Origin: Actinophytocola gossypii | Lineage (GTDB): Bacteria; Actinomycetota; Actinomycetes; Mycobacteriales; Pseudonocardiaceae | Length of the DNA: 64,000 bases | NCBI RefSeq assembly: GCF_025165815.1 | Contig: NZ_JAFFZE010000016.1 | Coordinates: 214,047 to 278,046, forward strand | Direction of reading: 5' to 3' | Shown: positions 39,277 to 47,204 of the stretch, piece after piece | Layout: every line of letters begins with the position of its first letter | Position numbering within the stretch: the stretch's first letter is position 1 | Made by a program: the position numbers and the translations under genes | Notes under the pieces: model-generated | What the model saw: only the letters and a program-made list of their open reading frames with translations | The model's database searches: none | What the model was told of the DNA's origin: nothing

Positions 39277-40019
39277 CGCGGTTGTCGAGTGCGAACAACA
39301 CGCTGTTCGACGGGCTCATCCCCGAGACGGAGATGTTGCCGCGCCTGAAGTCGCCGTCGACCATGTCCTGGACCGGTGATTCGGACATGATCGCGGCGAT
39401 GTCACACCGCGTAGCCGTAGAACTCTCGAACCTGACGGGAAGCCGGTTGCGTGACAACGCCATCCACACACAGCAGATCCGTAACCACGACACCGCGCGG
39501 CCCCATCTCCAACTGGCCGAACTCCACGGCCGAATCCGCGTCTGTTGCATTGATCTTCTCGATACGACCGAGCACGTCGACGACGCCCACGCCTCCATCC
39601 TTTCGTCGAGATCATGACGATCTTCCGCCGATCCCAGGCAGAGTCCACAGTAGACCAACCGTCGCCGTCCCCGCACTCCACGACCTCTGACCCGACCACC
39701 GCACCGGACGATGCGTACCGGCTGGTCGTGAACCAAACGCGTCGGCACGAGACTCTCAGCGGCTCGTGGACCTGACGCGCCAGCACAGGAAACCGTCCGG
39801 TAGCGAACCCAGGTCCGCCGCCCATCCGACCGACCAGCGCGATACCGGTACCCCCAGCCCTCGCGTTGGCGGCCCGGGTCGTTCTCGTCGCCCCACCCGA
39901 GCGCGCAACTGATCGTCGCGCCCTCGTGGTCGGCGGCGGCCGCCACGTACAGACCGAGGCGCCCGTCGCGTTCGGCCAGCCGCTACCGACAACGGAGACC
40001 CGGTTCGCGCACCGGCTGA

Positions 40020-40095
40020 TGGTGGGCCGCCTGGGGCTCGAACCCAGAACCTACGGATTAAAAGTCCGCAGCTCTACCAATTGAGCTAACGGCCC
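40020..40095 (-). tRNA. tRNA-Lys (anticodon TTT), CCA encoded
   Basis: Reverse complement GGGCCGTTAGCTCAATTGGTAGAGCTGCGGACTTTTAATCCGTAGGTTCTGGGTTCGAGCCCCAGGCGGCCCACCA folds as a cloverleaf. D-arm GCTC/GAGC; anticodon stem GCGGA/TCCGT with loop CTTTTAA; T-arm CTGGG-TTCGAGC-CCCAG; 7-bp acceptor stem. Confidence 0.85.
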
Positions 40096-40177
40096 GTGCT
40101 CGGGTCATGCTACCGAGGCGCCGGAGCCGTGTCCGGTATGGGCGTACTCGTGTCACCCGTCGGGGCGGATGGCCTGC

Positions 40178-42670
40178 TCAGCTTGTCATGCGGACCGCGC
40201 CGATGACGGGTTCGTGCTCGTCGACGGCGGTGAAGGCGCAGACGAGGTAGTCGCCGACCCGGACCGTCGCGTCGGCGCCGGGGAGCTTCTTGACCACCTC
40301 GGGGTCCAGGCCGGAGGTCTGGACGGCCTCGTTCGGGCCGGCGACCGTGTACAGGGTGGCCGGGCCGGGCGTGACCACCAGGAGGGTCACGGCGTGGTCG
40401 GCGACGGCCAGCAACCGCACCTCGGTCGCGTCGGGTACGGCGTACTCCCAGGGCTGGCCCTCGGACGTCCGGACCACGCCGTCGGTCTCCCCCTCCTCGC
40501 CCCGGACGACGAACACGCCGTCGCCGTCGGTCAGGAGGTTCGTCGGGGGGTGTCCGGCGGTGCGGTCCTCGACCGAACCGACCCCGGCGCCGGAGATGTC
40601 GACGGGTCTGGCGAAGTGTCCACTTCCCACCAGGTGGAGACGTCGCAGGCCCGCGGCGTCGAAGCAGCCGGCCAGTAGGTGGTGCTTGCCGGCGGGCCGC
40701 AGGAAGCCGCCGCCCATGAAGTTGGAGAACTCACCGCATCCCTCCAGCTCCGTGCCCGGCGCCCAGCCGGGGTCGTCCTTGCTCCACTCGAGCAACCTCG
40801 TCGAATCGGCACACCTCGACACCGCCAGGACGCTGTCGTCCACCGCGTGGGCGAAGCCGGTCAGCCGGCAGGACGGTTCCACCGGCTCGGCACCGACGTC
40901 CGTCGACCCCAGGCGCTCTCCCGTCCTGGTGTCGAACCAGGTCAGGTCCGTGCTGTGCTCGGTCTGGGACGCACCGCCGCCGTAGGACGCGGTCACCAGG
41001 CCGTCGCTGATCGACAGCGACGTCCCGCCGGTCTTGCCCACCGCGCCGGAGAAGCCCTCGTCGACCAGGGAGACCGGCTCGTCCCACTCGGGTTCGCCCG
41101 ACTCCACCGAGATGACCTGCAGGGTGTGGCACCGTTGCCCGCCGTCCCCGCCCCGCGGTCCGTAGGTGACCGCGCCGAGGCCGCTCGCCGTGACGTTCGG
41201 GCTCAGGTTGCACAGGAAGGCGTCCCCGGGGACCTCCCACGACCACAGCTCCGCACCGGTCTCGACGTCGTACGCGGTCAGCCCCTTCCAGTGGCCGAAC
41301 ACCACACCGTCCGGCAGGGGCCACATGCCCTCGTAGAAGCCCGCCTCCTCCCTGGTCATCGCCCAGTGGAACCCGCCGACACCGTTGGGGCCCGGCTGCT
41401 CGGCGGCGATGCCGTCGTCCGACCCGGACGACGGACCGTCCCGCCAGGGCGCCAGGACGACGACCGCGACGACGGCGGCGACGATCAGCACCGACAGCGC
41501 GCCGACCACGGCGGCCCCACCCGTCCGGCGCCCGGACGGGCGGTGCGGCGGCGGGTACGGGGCGGCGGCGGCCGGGACGTCCCAGGTGCGCGCTCCGAGA
41601 CTGCCCAGGCCGATCTGGTGCGCGCCGAGCGCGACCGCGGTCTCGGGCTGGTCCAGGGCCGTCGGGACGACCCCCAGCTGCTCGGCCATGAGCGTCGCCA
41701 CCAGCGGGATCCGGCTCGATCCGCCGACCAGGTACACCCCGGCCAGCCAGCCGACGTCCATGCCGGCGCCTCGGGTCGTGGAGCCAAGCAGCTCGACGCT
41801 GCGCAGCAGGCCCGGCCGGACCGGCGTCTCCAGCTCCGCCCGCGTGACCAGCACCGAACCGAACGGCTCCGGCATCGCCACCTCGGTCTGCGGGTGCTCG
41901 GACAACGCCTCCTTGGCGACCCGGACGTCCTCCCGCAACGCCAGCGACGCCCGGCGGTCCTCGGCCGAGCCCGGGGTGACGAGGCGACGCCAGGCGTCCG
42001 GGTCCCGCCCGCCGACCTGGCGGCCGAGGTGGTCGAGCAGCGCCTGGTCGATGTCCAGGCCGCCCAGGTCGGACAACCCGGACTCGGCCAGCACGGTGAG
42101 GCCGTGCTGGCCGGCGCCGACGACCGCCGCGTCGAACGTGCCGGCGCCGAGGTCGTAGACCGCCAGCGCCTGTCCCGGCGCGAGTACCCGCCCGGTCGCC
42201 GACGCGAAGTGCGCCGCGGCCGCCACCGGCTCGGGCACCAGCTGGACGACCGCGCCGACGCCGGCCTGCCGGGCGGCCTCCAGCAGGACCGCGCAGCGCG
42301 CGGTGCCCCACCGCACGGGGTGGGTGAGCCGAACCTGGTCCGGCAGCACACCCCCGAGCTGCCGGCTCGCCTCCGCGACGACCTTGCCGAGCACCGCGCC
42401 GAGCGCGGACGCCACCGGCACCACGACGTCGCCGAGCAGCAGCGTGCCGTCGTCGACCCGGCGCTTGGGGTTGGGCTCGAACCGGGCGGGCGCGGACCGG
42501 GCCAGCCGGACCGCCTCACGACCGGCCACCAGCCGGCCGTCCTCGGTGGCGAACACCGCCGACGGCATCGCCGACGCTCCGTCCACATCGACCACTCTCG
42601 GCGGCCGGCCGGGCGCGGACAGCACCGCCACCGTGTTGGACGTTCCCAGGTCAACGGTCAGTACGCGCAC
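40178..42670 (-). CDS. Hsp70-family actin-like ATPase domain fused via a TM helix to a C-terminal PQQ-like beta-propeller (predicted extracytoplasmic)
   Basis: N-terminus VDLGTSNTVAV and later DLGAGTFD (Hsp70/actin phosphate-1 and -2 motifs). Hydrophobic segment AAVVGALSVLIVAAVVAVVVLA. C-terminal half rich in repeated W/G/D beta-strand motifs (PQQ/WD-like). Start placed at the GTG (VRVLTVDLG). Confidence 0.75.
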   Translation of the reverse strand: MRVLTVDLGTSNTVAVLSAPGRPPRVVDVDGASAMPSAVFATEDGRLVAGREAVRLARSAPARFEPNPKRRVDDGTLLLGDVVVPVASALGAVLGKVVAEASRQLGGVLPDQVRLTHPVRWGTARCAVLLEAARQAGVGAVVQLVPEPVAAAAHFASATGRVLAPGQALAVYDLGAGTFDAAVVGAGQHGLTVLAESGLSDLGGLDIDQALLDHLGRQVGGRDPDAWRRLVTPGSAEDRRASLALREDVRVAKEALSEHPQTEVAMPEPFGSVLVTRAELETPVRPGLLRSVELLGSTTRGAGMDVGWLAGVYLVGGSSRIPLVATLMAEQLGVVPTALDQPETAVALGAHQIGLGSLGARTWDVPAAAAPYPPPHRPSGRRTGGAAVVGALSVLIVAAVVAVVVLAPWRDGPSSGSDDGIAAEQPGPNGVGGFHWAMTREEAGFYEGMWPLPDGVVFGHWKGLTAYDVETGAELWSWEVPGDAFLCNLSPNVTASGLGAVTYGPRGGDGGQRCHTLQVISVESGEPEWDEPVSLVDEGFSGAVGKTGGTSLSISDGLVTASYGGGASQTEHSTDLTWFDTRTGERLGSTDVGAEPVEPSCRLTGFAHAVDDSVLAVSRCADSTRLLEWSKDDPGWAPGTELEGCGEFSNFMGGGFLRPAGKHHLLAGCFDAAGLRRLHLVGSGHFARPVDISGAGVGSVEDRTAGHPPTNLLTDGDGVFVVRGEEGETDGVVRTSEGQPWEYAVPDATEVRLLAVADHAVTLLVVTPGPATLYTVAGPNEAVQTSGLDPEVVKKLPGADATVRVGDYLVCAFTAVDEHEPVIGAVRMTS

Positions 42671-42785
42671 CAGTTCTCCACCCCTGCCACTCGGCCGTGC
42701 TGGTGCCAGAGGGTCGGGGTCGGTACGCGTCAGCGACAAGGCAAGTGCGGCGGCCACTTCTGGCCGGGTGGGCCTACCAGGGGGT

Positions 42786-44228
42786 CTACTCGAAGATGCC
42801 CTGCCCGGGAGCGAGCACGTGCCGCGGGTCGTAGGTCGCCTTGGCCAGGGCGAACCGCGGGTACCGGTCGCCGTAGTGGGCGCGCCAGTCGGCCGGGGTG
42901 AGCGGGATCGCGCCAACCGGGTAGTGGGTGCCGCCGACCGCGCGGACCTGGTCGTACAGGTCGCGGTTCACGCCGAGCAGGCGCTGCACGTCCGCCTCGT
43001 TCGGCGGGTCCACGGCGCGCAGGATCGCCAGCAGGAAGATCACCTCGCTGTCCGGCACCGTCACGAACGGCAGGGTCAGCAGCTCCCTCGGCACCGGGTA
43101 CAGCAGGACCACGCCGCCCGCGTCGGCCGGGGTCAGGTCGGCCAGGACGTCGGCGACGTAGGCGTCGGTCGCGGCGTCGGGGACGAACACGTTGATCCAC
43201 GGGCCGGGCAGGCGCAGCGGCTTGAGGTCCTCGACCAGGGCGTAGATCCGGTTCAGCCAGTCGAAGTACGGCATGTCCACGATCTCGGTGGACGCCGGGT
43301 CGAGGCCGGCCAGGAGCGCCGCGTCGTCCGGCACCTCCGGCGGGGTGTGGTACTCGACGCCTTCCAGCATGTACCGCCAGCCGCCCTCGGCGGGGATCAG
43401 CTGGCCCTCCAGGTAGCTGAACCGGCGGTCCGCCAACGCCGTGCGCTGGGCGGCGGTCATCGACGCCAGGTCCGGGTAGTACAGGTTGTAGACCCGCGCC
43501 GTCGACTCCGCCGGCACCAGGCGAACGGCGGCGCGGACGATGATCGCGAACTGGCCGAGCCCGCCGAGCACCGATCGGAACAGTGCCGGGCGCACGGTCG
43601 GCGAGCAGCGCAGGTGCCGGCCGGAACCCGTCACGACCTCCAGCTCCAGCACGTTGTCGACCTGCATGCCGTGGTGCGAGCTGGCCCCGCCGATCCCGCC
43701 GACCGACAGCGTGCCGCCGACCGACAGGCCGAGGTAGTCGGTGTTCACCGGCGGCGTCAGGCCCTCGGCCACCGTGGCGCGCACCAGGTCCAACCACTGC
43801 ACGCCGGCGTCGACGACCGCGCGGTCCTGGTCGATCCGGTGGATCGTGGCCAGCGTGCGAGAGTCGATCACCACCCCGCCGCCGGCCTGGGCCTGGCCGA
43901 ACGTCGAGTGGCCCTGGCCGCGCATCGCGACCTTCAGGCCGTGCTCGCCCGCGTACTGGACCATCCGCACCACGTCGCGCACCGACCCGGGCCGCAGCAC
44001 CGCGACCGGGCGGCGGTGCACGAGGTGGCCGTAGTCGTCGGCCGCCTCGGCCAGGGACTCCTCGTCGACGACCAGCTCGCCGTCCAGGTGCGGCACGCCC
44101 ACCGCGCCCGGCTGGGTCGCCGACGCGTCGGCCTCGGTGACCCAGCCCAGCCCGGCGGGGTCGAACGCGACCACGGCCGCGGCGGCCGAGCCGGCCAGGA
44201 AGGTTCGCCGGCCGAGACGGGAGTCCAT
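42786..44228 (-). CDS. Tat-exported FAD-linked oxidase (FAD_binding_4, cytokinin-dehydrogenase/BBE-like fold)
   Basis: Twin-arginine signal MDSRLGRRTFLAGSAAAAVVAF. FAD-binding PCMH domain (VAVLRPGSVRDVVRMVQYAGEHGLKVAMRGQGHS). Start ATG preceded by AAGGAG. Confidence 0.8.
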   Translation of the reverse strand: MDSRLGRRTFLAGSAAAAVVAFDPAGLGWVTEADASATQPGAVGVPHLDGELVVDEESLAEAADDYGHLVHRRPVAVLRPGSVRDVVRMVQYAGEHGLKVAMRGQGHSTFGQAQAGGGVVIDSRTLATIHRIDQDRAVVDAGVQWLDLVRATVAEGLTPPVNTDYLGLSVGGTLSVGGIGGASSHHGMQVDNVLELEVVTGSGRHLRCSPTVRPALFRSVLGGLGQFAIIVRAAVRLVPAESTARVYNLYYPDLASMTAAQRTALADRRFSYLEGQLIPAEGGWRYMLEGVEYHTPPEVPDDAALLAGLDPASTEIVDMPYFDWLNRIYALVEDLKPLRLPGPWINVFVPDAATDAYVADVLADLTPADAGGVVLLYPVPRELLTLPFVTVPDSEVIFLLAILRAVDPPNEADVQRLLGVNRDLYDQVRAVGGTHYPVGAIPLTPADWRAHYGDRYPRFALAKATYDPRHVLAPGQGIFE

Positions 44229-44332
44229 TGGGCACGCTCCTTGCTGTTCGGAGTGGACGCCCGGCGGACGATAGTCCACGATCGACTCGCCCGGTTCCCC
44301 CTTTTGCCGAGCCCGATAAGGCAAACGGCCGC

Positions 44333-45670
44333 TCAGAACGCCGGTGCCAGCGCCGGCTTCGCGACGCTCGGCACCCGCCGGGTCGGCAGCTGGTGACGTC
44401 CGGTCGCACGGTTGCGGTTCGGGGCCCGGCTCGCCATCGCCGCCGCGGGGATCGGCGTCGGCTCGGCCGGCGCGCGCCGCTCGCCGGGCGCCGGGTTGTG
44501 CCGCATCACGGTCTCGGTCCAGGTCAGCACCGCGCCGGGGCTGTCCAGGCCGATCACACCCATCAGGCGGCCGTCGGCGACGTAGCCGACGACGGTGCCG
44601 TTGCCCTCCCTCGGGGTGCCGAGCGAGATCGTCTCCGTGCCCAGCTTCGGCACGCCGGCGGCCTGGATCCGCACGCCGAACTGCTCGGTCCAGAACCGGG
44701 GCATCGGCGTGAACGGCCGGGCGGCGGACCGACCGGCGAGCAGGCTCTCCGCCGCCGCGCGGCCCATCTCGACCGCGTTCAGCCAGTGCTCGATCCGGCG
44801 GGGCTTGTCGTCGAAGCGCAGGTTGGGCCACTGCGCCACGTCACCGGCGGCGACCACGTCCTCCGCGCCGACCACGTGACAGGTCGCCTCGCAGACCACG
44901 CCGTCGTCCAGCGGCAGGCCGGACCCGCGCAGCCAGGTCGTCGCCGGCACGGTGCCCGCGGCCACGATCGCGCACGCGGCCAGCATGAACGTGCCGTCGG
45001 ACAGGTGCAGCTCGATCCCGTCCGGTCGGGGCACCCAGTGCCGCACGGACGTCTCCAGGGCGAGGTCGACGTCGTGGTGGCGGTGCATCGAGGTCATCCA
45101 CTCGCCGAGCTGCGGGCCGAGCACGTTGCCGAGCAGGTTGGGGCCGCGGGCGACGATCGTCACCTCGCGGTTGAGGTGCCGCAGGCTGCACGCGATCTCG
45201 CAGCCGGTGAACCCGCCGCCGACGATCGCCACCGGGCCGCGGCCGGCCGACACCGCCCGCTCGATGCCGAGCGCGTCCTGCATGGTGCGCAGGCCGAGCA
45301 CCCGCGGGTCGTGGTACGGAACGCCGGGGATCCGCCTGGCCTCCATGCCGGTGGCGATGACCAAACCGTCGTAGGTGAGGTCCTCACCGCCGGGCAGGCG
45401 CAGGGTGCGCTTCTGCGGCACGAGGTACTGGACGCTGGTGTCGAGCCGCCACTTCGCGCCGATCTCCCGGTACGCGGGCAGCATCAGGTCGACCGGCTTC
45501 ATCGCGCCGGTGAGCAGCTGCTTGGACAGCGCGGGCCGGTGGTAGGGCGGGGTGGCCTCGTCGCCGATGATCACCAGCTCGCCGTTGAACCCGAGCTCCC
45601 GGAGCCGCTCCGCCGCGCGCAGGCCGGCCAACCCGGCACCCACGACGACCACACGTTCGAGCCGGCTCAT
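44333..45670 (-). CDS. FAD-dependent pyridine-nucleotide-disulfide-oxidoreductase-type ferredoxin reductase
   Basis: Two Rossmann motifs (VVVVGAGLAGLRAAE and VAIVGGGFTGCEIA), with ferredoxin/putidaredoxin-reductase-like length and order. ATGA overlap with the upstream membrane-ferredoxin gene. Confidence 0.85.
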   Translation of the reverse strand: MSRLERVVVVGAGLAGLRAAERLRELGFNGELVIIGDEATPPYHRPALSKQLLTGAMKPVDLMLPAYREIGAKWRLDTSVQYLVPQKRTLRLPGGEDLTYDGLVIATGMEARRIPGVPYHDPRVLGLRTMQDALGIERAVSAGRGPVAIVGGGFTGCEIACSLRHLNREVTIVARGPNLLGNVLGPQLGEWMTSMHRHHDVDLALETSVRHWVPRPDGIELHLSDGTFMLAACAIVAAGTVPATTWLRGSGLPLDDGVVCEATCHVVGAEDVVAAGDVAQWPNLRFDDKPRRIEHWLNAVEMGRAAAESLLAGRSAARPFTPMPRFWTEQFGVRIQAAGVPKLGTETISLGTPREGNGTVVGYVADGRLMGVIGLDSPGAVLTWTETVMRHNPAPGERRAPAEPTPIPAAAMASRAPNRNRATGRHQLPTRRVPSVAKPALAPAF

Positions 45671-46494
45671 TTGCTTCCTACCTCCTGCAACTGGATGGCC
45701 CGCATGGGACAGGCGCGTGCCGCGGCCTGCGCGCCCGCCCGGTTCTCGTCGTCCGGATCGCGGACGTAGCGCAACCGTCCGTCCTCCAGCAGGGTGAACA
45801 GCTCCGGTGACTCCATCTGACAGATGCCGTACCGCTTGCACCGCTGGTTGTCCACGGCCACCCGAACGGTGCGCGCGACCCCGTTCTGCACGCCAGACGG
45901 CTCCTGGATCGGGGAGGCGGCGACCGGTGCCGCGCCGAGCAGGCCCGCGCTGATCAGCAGCCGGGGCGGCAGGAAGCGCAGCACGGTCAGGGTGACCGCC
46001 GGGACCAGCACGGTGAACCCGCCGAGCCACATCGCCGACAGGTGCCCGTTGGCGATCGCGCCGAACCAGGAGTGCACCACGAGCATCGCCACCGCCGGGT
46101 AGGCGAGCTGGTGGAACCGCAGCCAGCGCCGGTAGTTCACGAACCGCTTGAGCCCGACCCCGATGGCGATCGCGATCATCAGCTCCAGACCGAGGATGCC
46201 GAGCGTGTGCCGGAACAGCCCGCTGAACGGGATCGTGATGCCGGTGAGCGACAACCCCTGTTCCCGCAGCAGCAGGAACACGATCGCGTGCGTCATCCCG
46301 GCGGCGATCGTGAACGACGCCAGGATCATGTGCCCGGACCGGATGGCCTGGTACCCGGTGAGCCTGCGGATCCAGCCGGTCGCGGTCAGCACACCCCAGC
46401 ACAGCGTGAAGCACATCAGCACGTAGGCGGCACGGGCGGAGAGCGCGGCGACCTCCCGGACGCCGATGTCGTGGCCGGGCAGGGCGATGATCAT
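45667..46494 (-). CDS. fusion protein: 5-TM membrane domain with paired intramembrane histidines (candidate b-haem, ferric-reductase/MsrQ-like) + C-terminal [3Fe-4S]/[4Fe-4S] ferredoxin
   Basis: His pairs in TM2 (GHMILASFTIAAGMTH; 14 residues apart) and TM4 (VVHSWFGAIANGH). C-terminal ferredoxin VAVDNQRCKRYGICQMESPELF...ARACPMRAI (CxxGxC...CP). ATGA overlaps on both sides. Confidence 0.65.
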   Translation of the reverse strand: MIIALPGHDIGVREVAALSARAAYVLMCFTLCWGVLTATGWIRRLTGYQAIRSGHMILASFTIAAGMTHAIVFLLLREQGLSLTGITIPFSGLFRHTLGILGLELMIAIAIGVGLKRFVNYRRWLRFHQLAYPAVAMLVVHSWFGAIANGHLSAMWLGGFTVLVPAVTLTVLRFLPPRLLISAGLLGAAPVAASPIQEPSGVQNGVARTVRVAVDNQRCKRYGICQMESPELFTLLEDGRLRYVRDPDDENRAGAQAAARACPMRAIQLQEVGSK

Positions 46495-47204
46495 GCCGTC
46501 CCGCCTTTGCTGAAGCCGCGGACGAGCCCGAGGGTCGCGCCGACCACGAAGACGCCGAGGATCCCGGCGAGCGCGAGGTCGCTGCCGCCGAGCGTGTTCT
46601 CCGGGTTGTCGGCGGAGCGGGCGGAGGCCTCGCTGAACAGCCCTTCGGCGGTGACGTGTCCGGTGCCCTCGAGGATCGTCATGTGCTTCATGACCACGGT
46701 GTTGGCCGACGTGGCGAACTCCCGGATGGTGTCGTTGCGGGTGCCGGCGCGGACCTCGGCGATCAGCCCGAACACGGTGCCGTGCGCGGCCCGGAGCCGG
46801 TTGGCGAAGACCCGGTCGAACTCGTCGCCGGTGGCGGCGCTGATCTCGTCCATCCACTGCTGGTGGTTGGCCTTCGGGGCGTCCGGCAGGTCGACGCCGA
46901 ACTGCTGGGCCAGCTCCTCGATCTGGACGTTGAGCTGCTTGTGGTCGGCGTTGATGGTGCGGCCGACCTCGCGCACGTTCTCGGAGTTCCCGCGTTGGGC
47001 GGCCAGGTCGCCCATCGGGATCTCCCAGAGGTTGGCGAACCGGATGGTGAACAGGAACTCCCGGTCCCGGTCGCTGAACTCGTCGCCGTCGGGCTGCTGA
47101 GCCTGCCGCGGCTGCTCGGCGAACGCGAGCCAGGCGGCCGGGAACGCCGACACCAGGAGAGCGAGGAGACCGGCCGCCACCGAGCGGATGACCGCGCGCC
47201 GCAT
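46491..47204 (-). CDS. secreted DUF4142 (ferritin-like four-helix) domain protein
   Basis: Signal peptide MRRAVIRSVAAGLLALLVSAFPAAWLAFA. Repeated DUF4142-like helices (FDRVFANRLRAAHGTVF...). Start at the internal ATG of the track ORF. Confidence 0.65.
   Translation of the reverse strand: MRRAVIRSVAAGLLALLVSAFPAAWLAFAEQPRQAQQPDGDEFSDRDREFLFTIRFANLWEIPMGDLAAQRGNSENVREVGRTINADHKQLNVQIEELAQQFGVDLPDAPKANHQQWMDEISAATGDEFDRVFANRLRAAHGTVFGLIAEVRAGTRNDTIREFATSANTVVMKHMTILEGTGHVTAEGLFSEASARSADNPENTLGGSDLALAGILGVFVVGATLGLVRGFSKGGTA

Follow-up and report, generated by a model that had tools for sequence, protein, structure and literature searches.

DnaK paralogues that have lost the substrate-binding domain (SBD) and carry other domains appended to the nucleotide-binding domain (NBD) make up a recognised and widespread class of functionally uncharacterised proteins (PMC13580251). 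E. coli YegD and the NBD-only paralogues of Myxococcus are among these 'DnaK derivates'; what such proteins, numerous in complex bacteria, are doing is an acknowledged open question (PMC13580251). Here we describe a member of this class encoded in a 64,000-nt stretch of the Actinophytocola gossypii genome (contig NZ_JAFFZE010000016.1, positions 214,047 to 278,046; the whole stretch is called 'the window' below): an 830-aa protein in which an Hsp70-type NBD is joined through a single transmembrane (TM) helix to a beta-propeller (Table 1). Outside bacteria, HSPA13/STCH is, in outline, a eukaryotic NBD-only, membrane-associated Hsp70; to that extent it is comparable with the window protein, being likewise an NBD-only Hsp70 with no SBD. 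With YegD and the Myxococcus paralogues the window protein has in common the retained NBD, the loss of the SBD and the added domains; however, the form with a TM helix and an extracytoplasmic propeller goes unmentioned in the review of DnaK derivates (PMC13580251), and our literature search found no description of an Hsp70 NBD-TM-propeller protein. It is this membrane-anchored form, with an extracytoplasmic domain common to receptor Ser/Thr kinases, that we consider new. The more familiar memberships that we considered (canonical Hsp70, YegD, MreB, quinoprotein, Hanks kinase, published conflict systems) all fail; for a YegD orthologue, as an example, the NCBIfam model PRK11678 requires 331 bits and gave 29.2.

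The N-terminal part of the protein was assigned to the Hsp70/DnaK NBD by sequence and by structure. The Pfam HSP70 match (E=8.7e-25) covers profile positions 115-369 of 599 only; in a phmmer search against PDB sequences DnaK NBDs rank first (E=6.7e-28). In the full-length AlphaFold2 (AF2) model residues 1-355 are confident, with predicted local distance difference test (pLDDT) values mostly between 85 and 96, and the best Foldseek matches of the model are the NBDs of DnaK, mortalin and BiP (target TM-score 0.74-0.83, 25-29% identity). The motifs from which a preliminary description, made from the letters alone, had recognised an Hsp70-type ATPase domain are present, VDLGTSNT at residue 6, VYDLGAGTFD at 171 and VGGSSRIP at 315, as is QPETAVALGA. 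Each catalytic or phosphate-binding residue of DnaK followed through the alignment has its counterpart (Table 1), and each of these, as well as the motifs GGSSRIP and QPETAVALGA, is kept in 118-120 of the 120 closest relatives. Since the catalytic residues are intact, the degeneration to a pseudo-ATPase that the preliminary description had kept in mind does not apply to this copy; turnover of ATP would be expected of it.

Beyond the NBD, the features of a chaperone are missing. No SBD or lid was found after residue ~355, as anticipated in the preliminary description: the Pfam match breaks off at 369/599, and the AF2 model continues with a disordered stretch (residues 356-389) and then the TM helix. 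The sequence following the NBD, GLGSLGARTWDVPAAAAPYPPPHRPSGRR, has no hydrophobic interdomain linker of the VLLL (VLLLD) type. In DnaK the residues R167, N170 and T173 contact the J-domain; in the phmmer alignment with DnaK they fall on Q, P and V of the window protein. The NCBIfam models for DnaK and HscA score it at ~100 bits, with cutoffs of 620-1019, and there were no J-domain (DnaJ) or GrpE genes among the neighbours in the window and at five related loci. With the linker, SBD, lid and J-protein interface lost, the protein should not be a chaperone in the canonical sense. We characterize it, as far as sequence can tell, as a catalytically competent-looking SBD-less Hsp70 NBD and as a member of the known, uncharacterised 'DnaK derivative' class. 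Canonical Hsp70s (the DnaK proteins of E. coli and M. tuberculosis) have the NBD fold with its catalytic and phosphate-binding residues in common with it, whereas the window protein has neither interdomain linker nor SBD-beta nor helical lid, has its J-contact residues replaced, is held in the membrane, bears an extracytoplasmic domain and is free of DnaJ/GrpE linkage.

The single TM helix proposed earlier is borne out by one very hydrophobic segment (residues ~385-408, Kyte-Doolittle peak 3.14) that the AF2 model makes helical at 390-406. The Pro/Arg-rich linker before it, which contains the positive flank PHRPSGRR, stands where the interdomain linker and SBD of an Hsp70 would be. We infer an N-in/C-out topology, which puts the ATPase on the cytoplasmic side of the membrane and the propeller on the other, from three lines of evidence. 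The mean net charge of the 15 residues before the helix is +2.55 and that of the 15 residues after it is -1.80 (117 relatives); the number of ectodomain cysteines is seven in all fusion proteins without exception, as compared with 0-3 in the ~385-residue N-terminal part; and homologous propellers of protein kinases are likewise C-terminal to a TM helix, in proteins whose catalytic domain must be cytoplasmic. The same three observations agree with the placement of the C-terminal domain outside the cell in the preliminary description.

Modelled by AF2 together with 12 homologues, residues 427-830 come out as all-beta (pLDDT 86, predicted TM-score 0.87), with ~31 strands arranged as eight groups of four and, at the N-terminus, a strand that could serve for 'velcro' closure. 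The motif typical of pyrroloquinoline quinone (PQQ) propellers is seen in the first blades: AYDVETGAELWSW, VISVESGEPEWDE and WFDTRTGERLGS. The sole propeller-family sequence match was PQQ_2 (PF13360): the query scored 14.5-17.5 bits, below the gathering cutoff of 27.6; five of the 12 close homologues matched at E <= 0.1 (best E 8.6e-07), and distant homologues found by profile exceed the cutoff (e.g. P0127, 50.5 bits). The C-terminal domain is in the PQQ/BamB propeller lineage, reaching the Pfam threshold only via its homologues. Of the ~450-aa PQQ-like propeller expected earlier, the fold was upheld by the AF2 model and by PQQ_2 in the homologues; its length had to be corrected to ~404 aa. 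The seven cysteines probably stabilise the propeller by disulfides.

Assignment to PQQ-dependent dehydrogenases (quinoproteins) was tried and rejected: PF01011 reached 11.9 bits (E=0.09; cutoff 26.7), with 404 aa to set against a profile of ~595 positions. The closest described propellers are BamB and other non-catalytic eight-bladed PQQ_2 proteins. As compared with these, the window protein is TM-anchored, remains below the PQQ_2 cutoff and is without PQQ-dehydrogenase features; in addition, its host is a monoderm actinobacterium with no outer-membrane beta-barrel assembly machinery (BAM complex).

Considering the relatives of the propeller, we saw that it is not confined to Hsp70-like proteins. 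Word-indexed searches of 5.8 billion clusters returned about a dozen close relatives with the Hsp70-propeller fusion, and an exhaustive HMMER profile search (1.84 billion representatives) returned 554 proteins at E<=1e-3, of which 29 had E<=1e-30. Beyond the close clade none of the 146 matches listed has an Hsp70 NBD; a protein kinase domain is present in 22 of these 146, including most of the best full-length ones, and the remainder of those listed are propeller proteins with a TM helix and a short tail. The kinase-propeller proteins are Ser/Thr kinases of Streptomyces and Kitasatospora, and outside the small fusion clade their ectodomains are those most closely related to the window propeller. 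One of them, P0133 from Streptomyces (36% identity over 377 aa, BLASTP E=2e-52), agrees with the window protein in six of its seven cysteines and in the junction, which consists of RR, TM helix, acidic linker and PNGxxGFHW. Receptor-type Hanks Ser/Thr kinases of this kind (P0131-P0136, e.g. WP_077060972.1) have a homologous TM-linker-propeller module in the same N-in/C-out layout; the window protein differs from them in its cytoplasmic domain, which is an Hsp70-type ATPase with no Pkinase match in Pfam. Two metagenomic proteins, P0121 (723 aa) and P0123 (549 aa), carry the RR-TM-linker-propeller module on a third kind of N-terminus, a region with no Pfam match and, in one of them, several hydrophobic segments. 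The propeller is modular, occurring on an Hsp70 NBD, on a kinase or on a multi-TM N-terminus.

The fusion itself has been kept by no fewer than four named species, which belong to two genera, and is present in metagenomes too; its propeller is conserved over the full length with many invariant Gly, Trp and Pro residues. A pattern scan of GTDB representative genomes, made with the propeller alignment, gave one locus, in A. xinjiangensis, a count that is too low owing to the narrowness of the degenerate patterns.

The NBD of the window protein leads to another set of relatives. It is ~72% identical to the NBDs of a large Pseudonocardiaceae family (e.g. P0014, P0022, P0079) with the same layout of linker and single TM helix: an NBD, a long Pro-rich linker, one TM helix and a ~160-aa ectodomain with four cysteines. 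In this core family the NBDs are ~90% identical to one another across genera, and the gene order lhr helicase / Hsp70-like TM gene / DUF3046 / recA / recX is kept (L004 8001-12184, L005 8001-9794). Such identity across genera of Pseudonocardiaceae suggests an important housekeeping role for the core family. In Actinophytocola algeriensis the core-family gene is tandemly duplicated.

Seven Hsp70-propeller proteins form a clade of their own, with NBDs 64-83% identical among themselves and 56-75% identical to those of the core family. The NBD-TM part of the window protein derives from the conserved Pseudonocardiaceae family; unlike the core family, with its unrelated ectodomain and conserved synteny, the paralogous clade of the window protein evolves faster, has the propeller and shows no synteny. 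Within the fusion clade the propellers are 46-58% identical, so the ectodomain is evolving much faster than the NBD, as expected of a ligand-facing module. In a further NBD-TM protein, P0099 (611 aa), the ectodomain is a DUF3558 domain (37.4 bits, cutoff 34.1), to which hhalign found no relationship of the core ectodomain. On this comparison the NBD-TM scaffold carries at least two other, mutually unrelated ectodomains besides the propeller. P0099 lies on the same 332-kb metagenomic contig as P0046, that is, at least two paralogues are present on one contig.

The preliminary description spoke of a nucleotide-driven switch in the cytoplasm that is linked to a platform for interactions outside it, and we regard this as a reasonable inference. 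We propose, at a probability of roughly 0.45, that the protein serves in the envelope as a receptor-like sensor or anchor with a nucleotide-dependent Hsp70-like cytoplasmic output rather than as a chaperone. The propeller would bind a ligand or partner that is extracellular or part of the cell envelope; occupancy would most likely be passed on by clustering or localisation, the juxtamembrane segments being flexible; and clustering would alter nucleotide-dependent self-association of the NBD or its binding to a partner in the cytoplasm, for which DnaK is a candidate. The propeller is read as a sensor module because of its receptor-kinase context and its fast evolution. As the segments on both sides of the helix are predicted to be disordered, rigid conformational coupling is disfavoured and clustering or tethering favoured, which makes the clustering model the most economical.

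One could speculate further that Hsp70 NBDs are an unrecognised class of receptor output modules that swap with Hanks kinases, that the ligand of the propeller controls the NBD switch, and that the lhr-recA-linked NBD-TM gene is the housekeeping prototype; taken as a whole this extension is rather unlikely. The protein, together with the much larger and highly conserved NBD-TM family from which it derives, offers an unusually readable case: an ATPase fixed at the membrane, a partner domain turned outward, and the same module as in kinase sensors. It yields a concrete, testable hypothesis, an Hsp70-like domain as receptor output, and the result could show what role Hsp70 NBDs take once freed from chaperoning. 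If the wider reading of Hsp70 NBDs as a class of output modules is true, Actinomycetota would have a transmembrane signalling logic that is new.

Several observations weigh against a sensor with a nucleotide-dependent output. The same juxtamembrane disorder leaves no obvious allosteric route, and the protein may be a mere anchor. The fusion orthologue of Actinophytocola xinjiangensis (P0007, L002 8001-10502) is without K69, E147, T178 and D180, having HPLSRV, LVAAPAAV and DLGAGRVE at the sites of the lost motifs, and keeps a full-length propeller; it is probably a pseudo-ATPase, judged from these replacements, so ATP hydrolysis would not be universally needed in fusion proteins. A search of a large protein set for kinase-linked copies of the core ectodomain gave short fragments only, which bear neither way. 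No shared neighbour or conserved partner gene was found across five orthologue or paralogue loci and the window, and the literature search turned up no description of receptor-type Hsp70 domains.

A different cytoplasmic role follows if the NBD acts on DnaK itself. The protein would then be a membrane-localised DnaK co-chaperone that forms Hsp110-like NBD-NBD heterodimers and works as a nucleotide-exchange factor or recruiter; DnaK activity would be concentrated at places in the envelope that the propeller selects, e.g. near secretion or cell-wall assembly. An Hsp110-like role has been proposed for prokaryotic 'DnaK derivates' that keep only the NBD and extra domains in a 2026 review (PMC13580251), where it is itself speculative; the NBD is clearly DnaK-derived, and the ~90% identity of parent-family NBDs across genera is consistent with a conserved protein partner. 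However, no linkage to dnaK, grpE or dnaJ was seen at any locus examined, and a role as exchange factor leaves the exchange of ectodomains with kinases unexplained. We hold this reading to be unlikely; if it is true, recruitment of DnaK to the envelope would make the protein the first bacterial membrane-tethered Hsp110-like co-chaperone. The NBD could polymerise or dimerise at the inner membrane face as an actin-, MreB- or FtsA-like scaffold, with the propeller contacting peptidoglycan or the wall-synthesis machinery, so that morphogenesis would be linked across the membrane. The domain is in the ASKHA superfamily, relatives are labelled 'actin-like ATPase involved in cell morphogenesis' by the Joint Genome Institute (JGI), and there are weak MreB_Mbl matches in Pfam; these reach 39 bits in relatives, but the 17.4 bits found here are below the gathering cutoff of 27. 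Sequence and structure are far nearer to Hsp70 NBDs than to MreB, FtsA or ParM (all top structural matches are Hsp70), and no consistent cell-division or cell-wall genes are nearby, which makes a scaffold of this kind very unlikely.

The fast evolution of the propeller relative to the NBD, which we attribute to a ligand-facing sensor, could also point to conflict or defence: the propeller would detect molecules of phages, epibionts or competitors, and the NTPase would give a thresholded assembly output, such as has been proposed for the SBD-less HSP70s of conflict systems. SBD-less HSP70 proteins do occur in GTPase-centred conflict systems of actinobacteria (Kaur et al. 2020, PMC7159879), and oral Actinobacteria use beta-propellers on their surface to sense threats (bioRxiv 10.64898/2026.09.08.750141). 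Paralogues within one genome, the variable genomic context, Imm49 and CHAT genes nearby in two loci, and AAA_16 STAND-like ATPases that adjoin one fusion orthologue and one related kinase-propeller gene fit the same picture. Yet PADLOC gave no match, and membership of a known defence system was dropped; the GAP1-N2/DO GTPases, tubulin, GrpE and MoxR-vWA are all absent from the window and the orthologue loci; the AAA_16 adjacency concerns two of six loci and could be chance, AAA_16 genes being common in actinomycetes. We consider a conflict sensor quite unlikely. Finally, the fusion might be a young product of domain shuffling with little or no specific function, heading for decay. Its very narrow spread (about a dozen proteins among the 5.8 billion clusters, one locus in the GTDB scan), the one orthologue with degenerate ATPase motifs and the lack of conserved synteny could be taken this way. 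On the other hand, no catalytic residue is missing from the window copy, its open reading frame (ORF) is intact and its third-position GC content (GC3) is 0.92; the fusion is kept across species, genera and metagenomes with invariant cysteines; and both domains gave high-confidence AF2 models. Decay is therefore highly improbable, and an envelope sensor or anchor with an Hsp70-like output is the reading we prefer.

The gene is complete (Table 1), and its product is identical over 100% of its length (100% identity) to the NCBI entry 'Hsp70 family protein [Actinophytocola sp. S1-96]'. In Actinophytocola sp. S1-96 the gene has a paralogue, P0004; Amycolatopsis albispora carries a single gene of this kind. 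The GC3 value is of the coding type (window GC ~72%). A GTG start at 42670, with the motif GGTGGAG 5 nt upstream, yields the N-terminus MRVLTVDLGTSN, as in all homologues. The reading frame stays open further upstream, where the first start codon is a TTG at 42916 (912 aa); we dropped it in favour of GTG, since the longer ORF overlaps the 3'-end of the upstream gene and homologues begin with MRVL or MNVL. As noted in the preliminary description, the gene adjoins a tRNA-Lys: tRNA-Lys(TTT), encoded by the same strand, occupies 40020..40095, 82 nt downstream of the stop codon. A tblastn search of the window for a second copy matched the gene itself only; in a search of the 115-nt leader for RNA elements, Rfam matched the tRNA alone.

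Table 1. Features of the Hsp70-propeller gene and its product, DnaK residue equivalences, and neighbours of related genes (locus-based coordinates where no window position applies)
Feature	Position or locus	Strand	Basis or neighbours
Complete gene, Hsp70-like NBD + TM helix + beta-propeller	40178..42670	minus	translation: 830 codons + stop
Shine-Dalgarno-like GGTGGAG (putative function)	42676..42682	minus	read from sequence
Hsp70/DnaK-type NBD, residues 1-355	41606..42670	minus	Pfam, phmmer, AF2, Foldseek, residue conservation
Pro/Arg-rich cytoplasmic linker, residues 356-384, predicted disordered	41519..41605	minus	AF2 pLDDT <50 (356-393)
Single TM helix, residues 385-408, predicted N-in/C-out signal-anchor	41447..41518	minus	hydropathy, AF2, flank charge
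Ser/Asp/Gly-rich extracytoplasmic linker, residues 409-426, predicted disordered	41393..41446	minus	AF2 pLDDT <50 (406-426)
Eight-bladed PQQ/BamB-like beta-propeller, predicted ectodomain, residues 427-830, seven conserved Cys	40181..41392	minus	
D7 (DnaK D8)			DnaK alignment + motif positions
K69 (DnaK K70)			DnaK alignment + motif positions
E147 (DnaK E171)			DnaK alignment + motif positions
D173 (DnaK D194)			DnaK alignment + motif positions
T178 (DnaK T199)			DnaK alignment + motif positions
D180 (DnaK D201)			DnaK alignment + motif positions
Amycolatopsis albispora	L001		vanH-vanA-vanX/VanRS/VanY cluster
A. xinjiangensis	L002		GH18 chitinase
A. sediminis	L003		AAA_16 ATPase
Metagenome	L007		AMP-binding and amidohydrolase genes

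Upstream on the same strand (42786-46857, minus) there are, in order, genes for a ferric-reductase-like TM protein with a 4Fe-4S ferredoxin domain, for a Pyr_redox_2 flavoprotein of the ferredoxin-reductase type, and for an FAD_binding_4/cytokinin-dehydrogenase-like oxidase that ends 115 nt before the start of the window gene. The listed ORFs of this redox cluster carry long, mutually overlapping N-terminal extensions, so the true starts of these genes lie further downstream. The preliminary description had the Hsp70-like gene terminate this redox operon, a claim that we could not sustain in view of the 115-nt gap and of five related loci with entirely different neighbours. As a conserved relationship the redox link was dropped, no neighbours being in common among the five loci or with the window; the gene behaves as a unit of its own, and the redox link is most probably a coincidence. 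In this genome, transcription might still read through from the redox genes. A scan of 39800-43100 for consensus promoters and terminators came out empty, consensus scans being uninformative for a high-GC actinomycete.

Some of the neighbourhoods deserve mention in their own right. The van-type cluster beside the A. albispora orthologue (L001 389-6907) is made up of genes for a 2-Hacid_dh protein, a D-Ala-D-Ala ligase and a Peptidase_M15 protein together with VanS/VanR-like and VanY genes, and Imm49 immunity-protein genes are found near the same orthologue. The AAA_16 STAND-like ATPase gene of A. sediminis, coding for ~1100 aa, is directly beside the fusion gene (L003 4469-7795), and another such AAA_16 gene, also for ~1100 aa and with TPR, is directly beside the Streptomyces kinase-propeller gene P0133 (L009 2544-5834).

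In the window itself, the segment 38740-40020, located 3' of the tRNA-Lys (minus strand), has a GC content of 0.66-0.69, as compared with ~0.72-0.75 in its surroundings, and its ORFs gave no Pfam matches. Positions 38746-~39080, on the minus strand, resemble the C-terminal remnant of an NmrA/SDR-like gene; the segment may be decayed or integrated DNA beside the tRNA.

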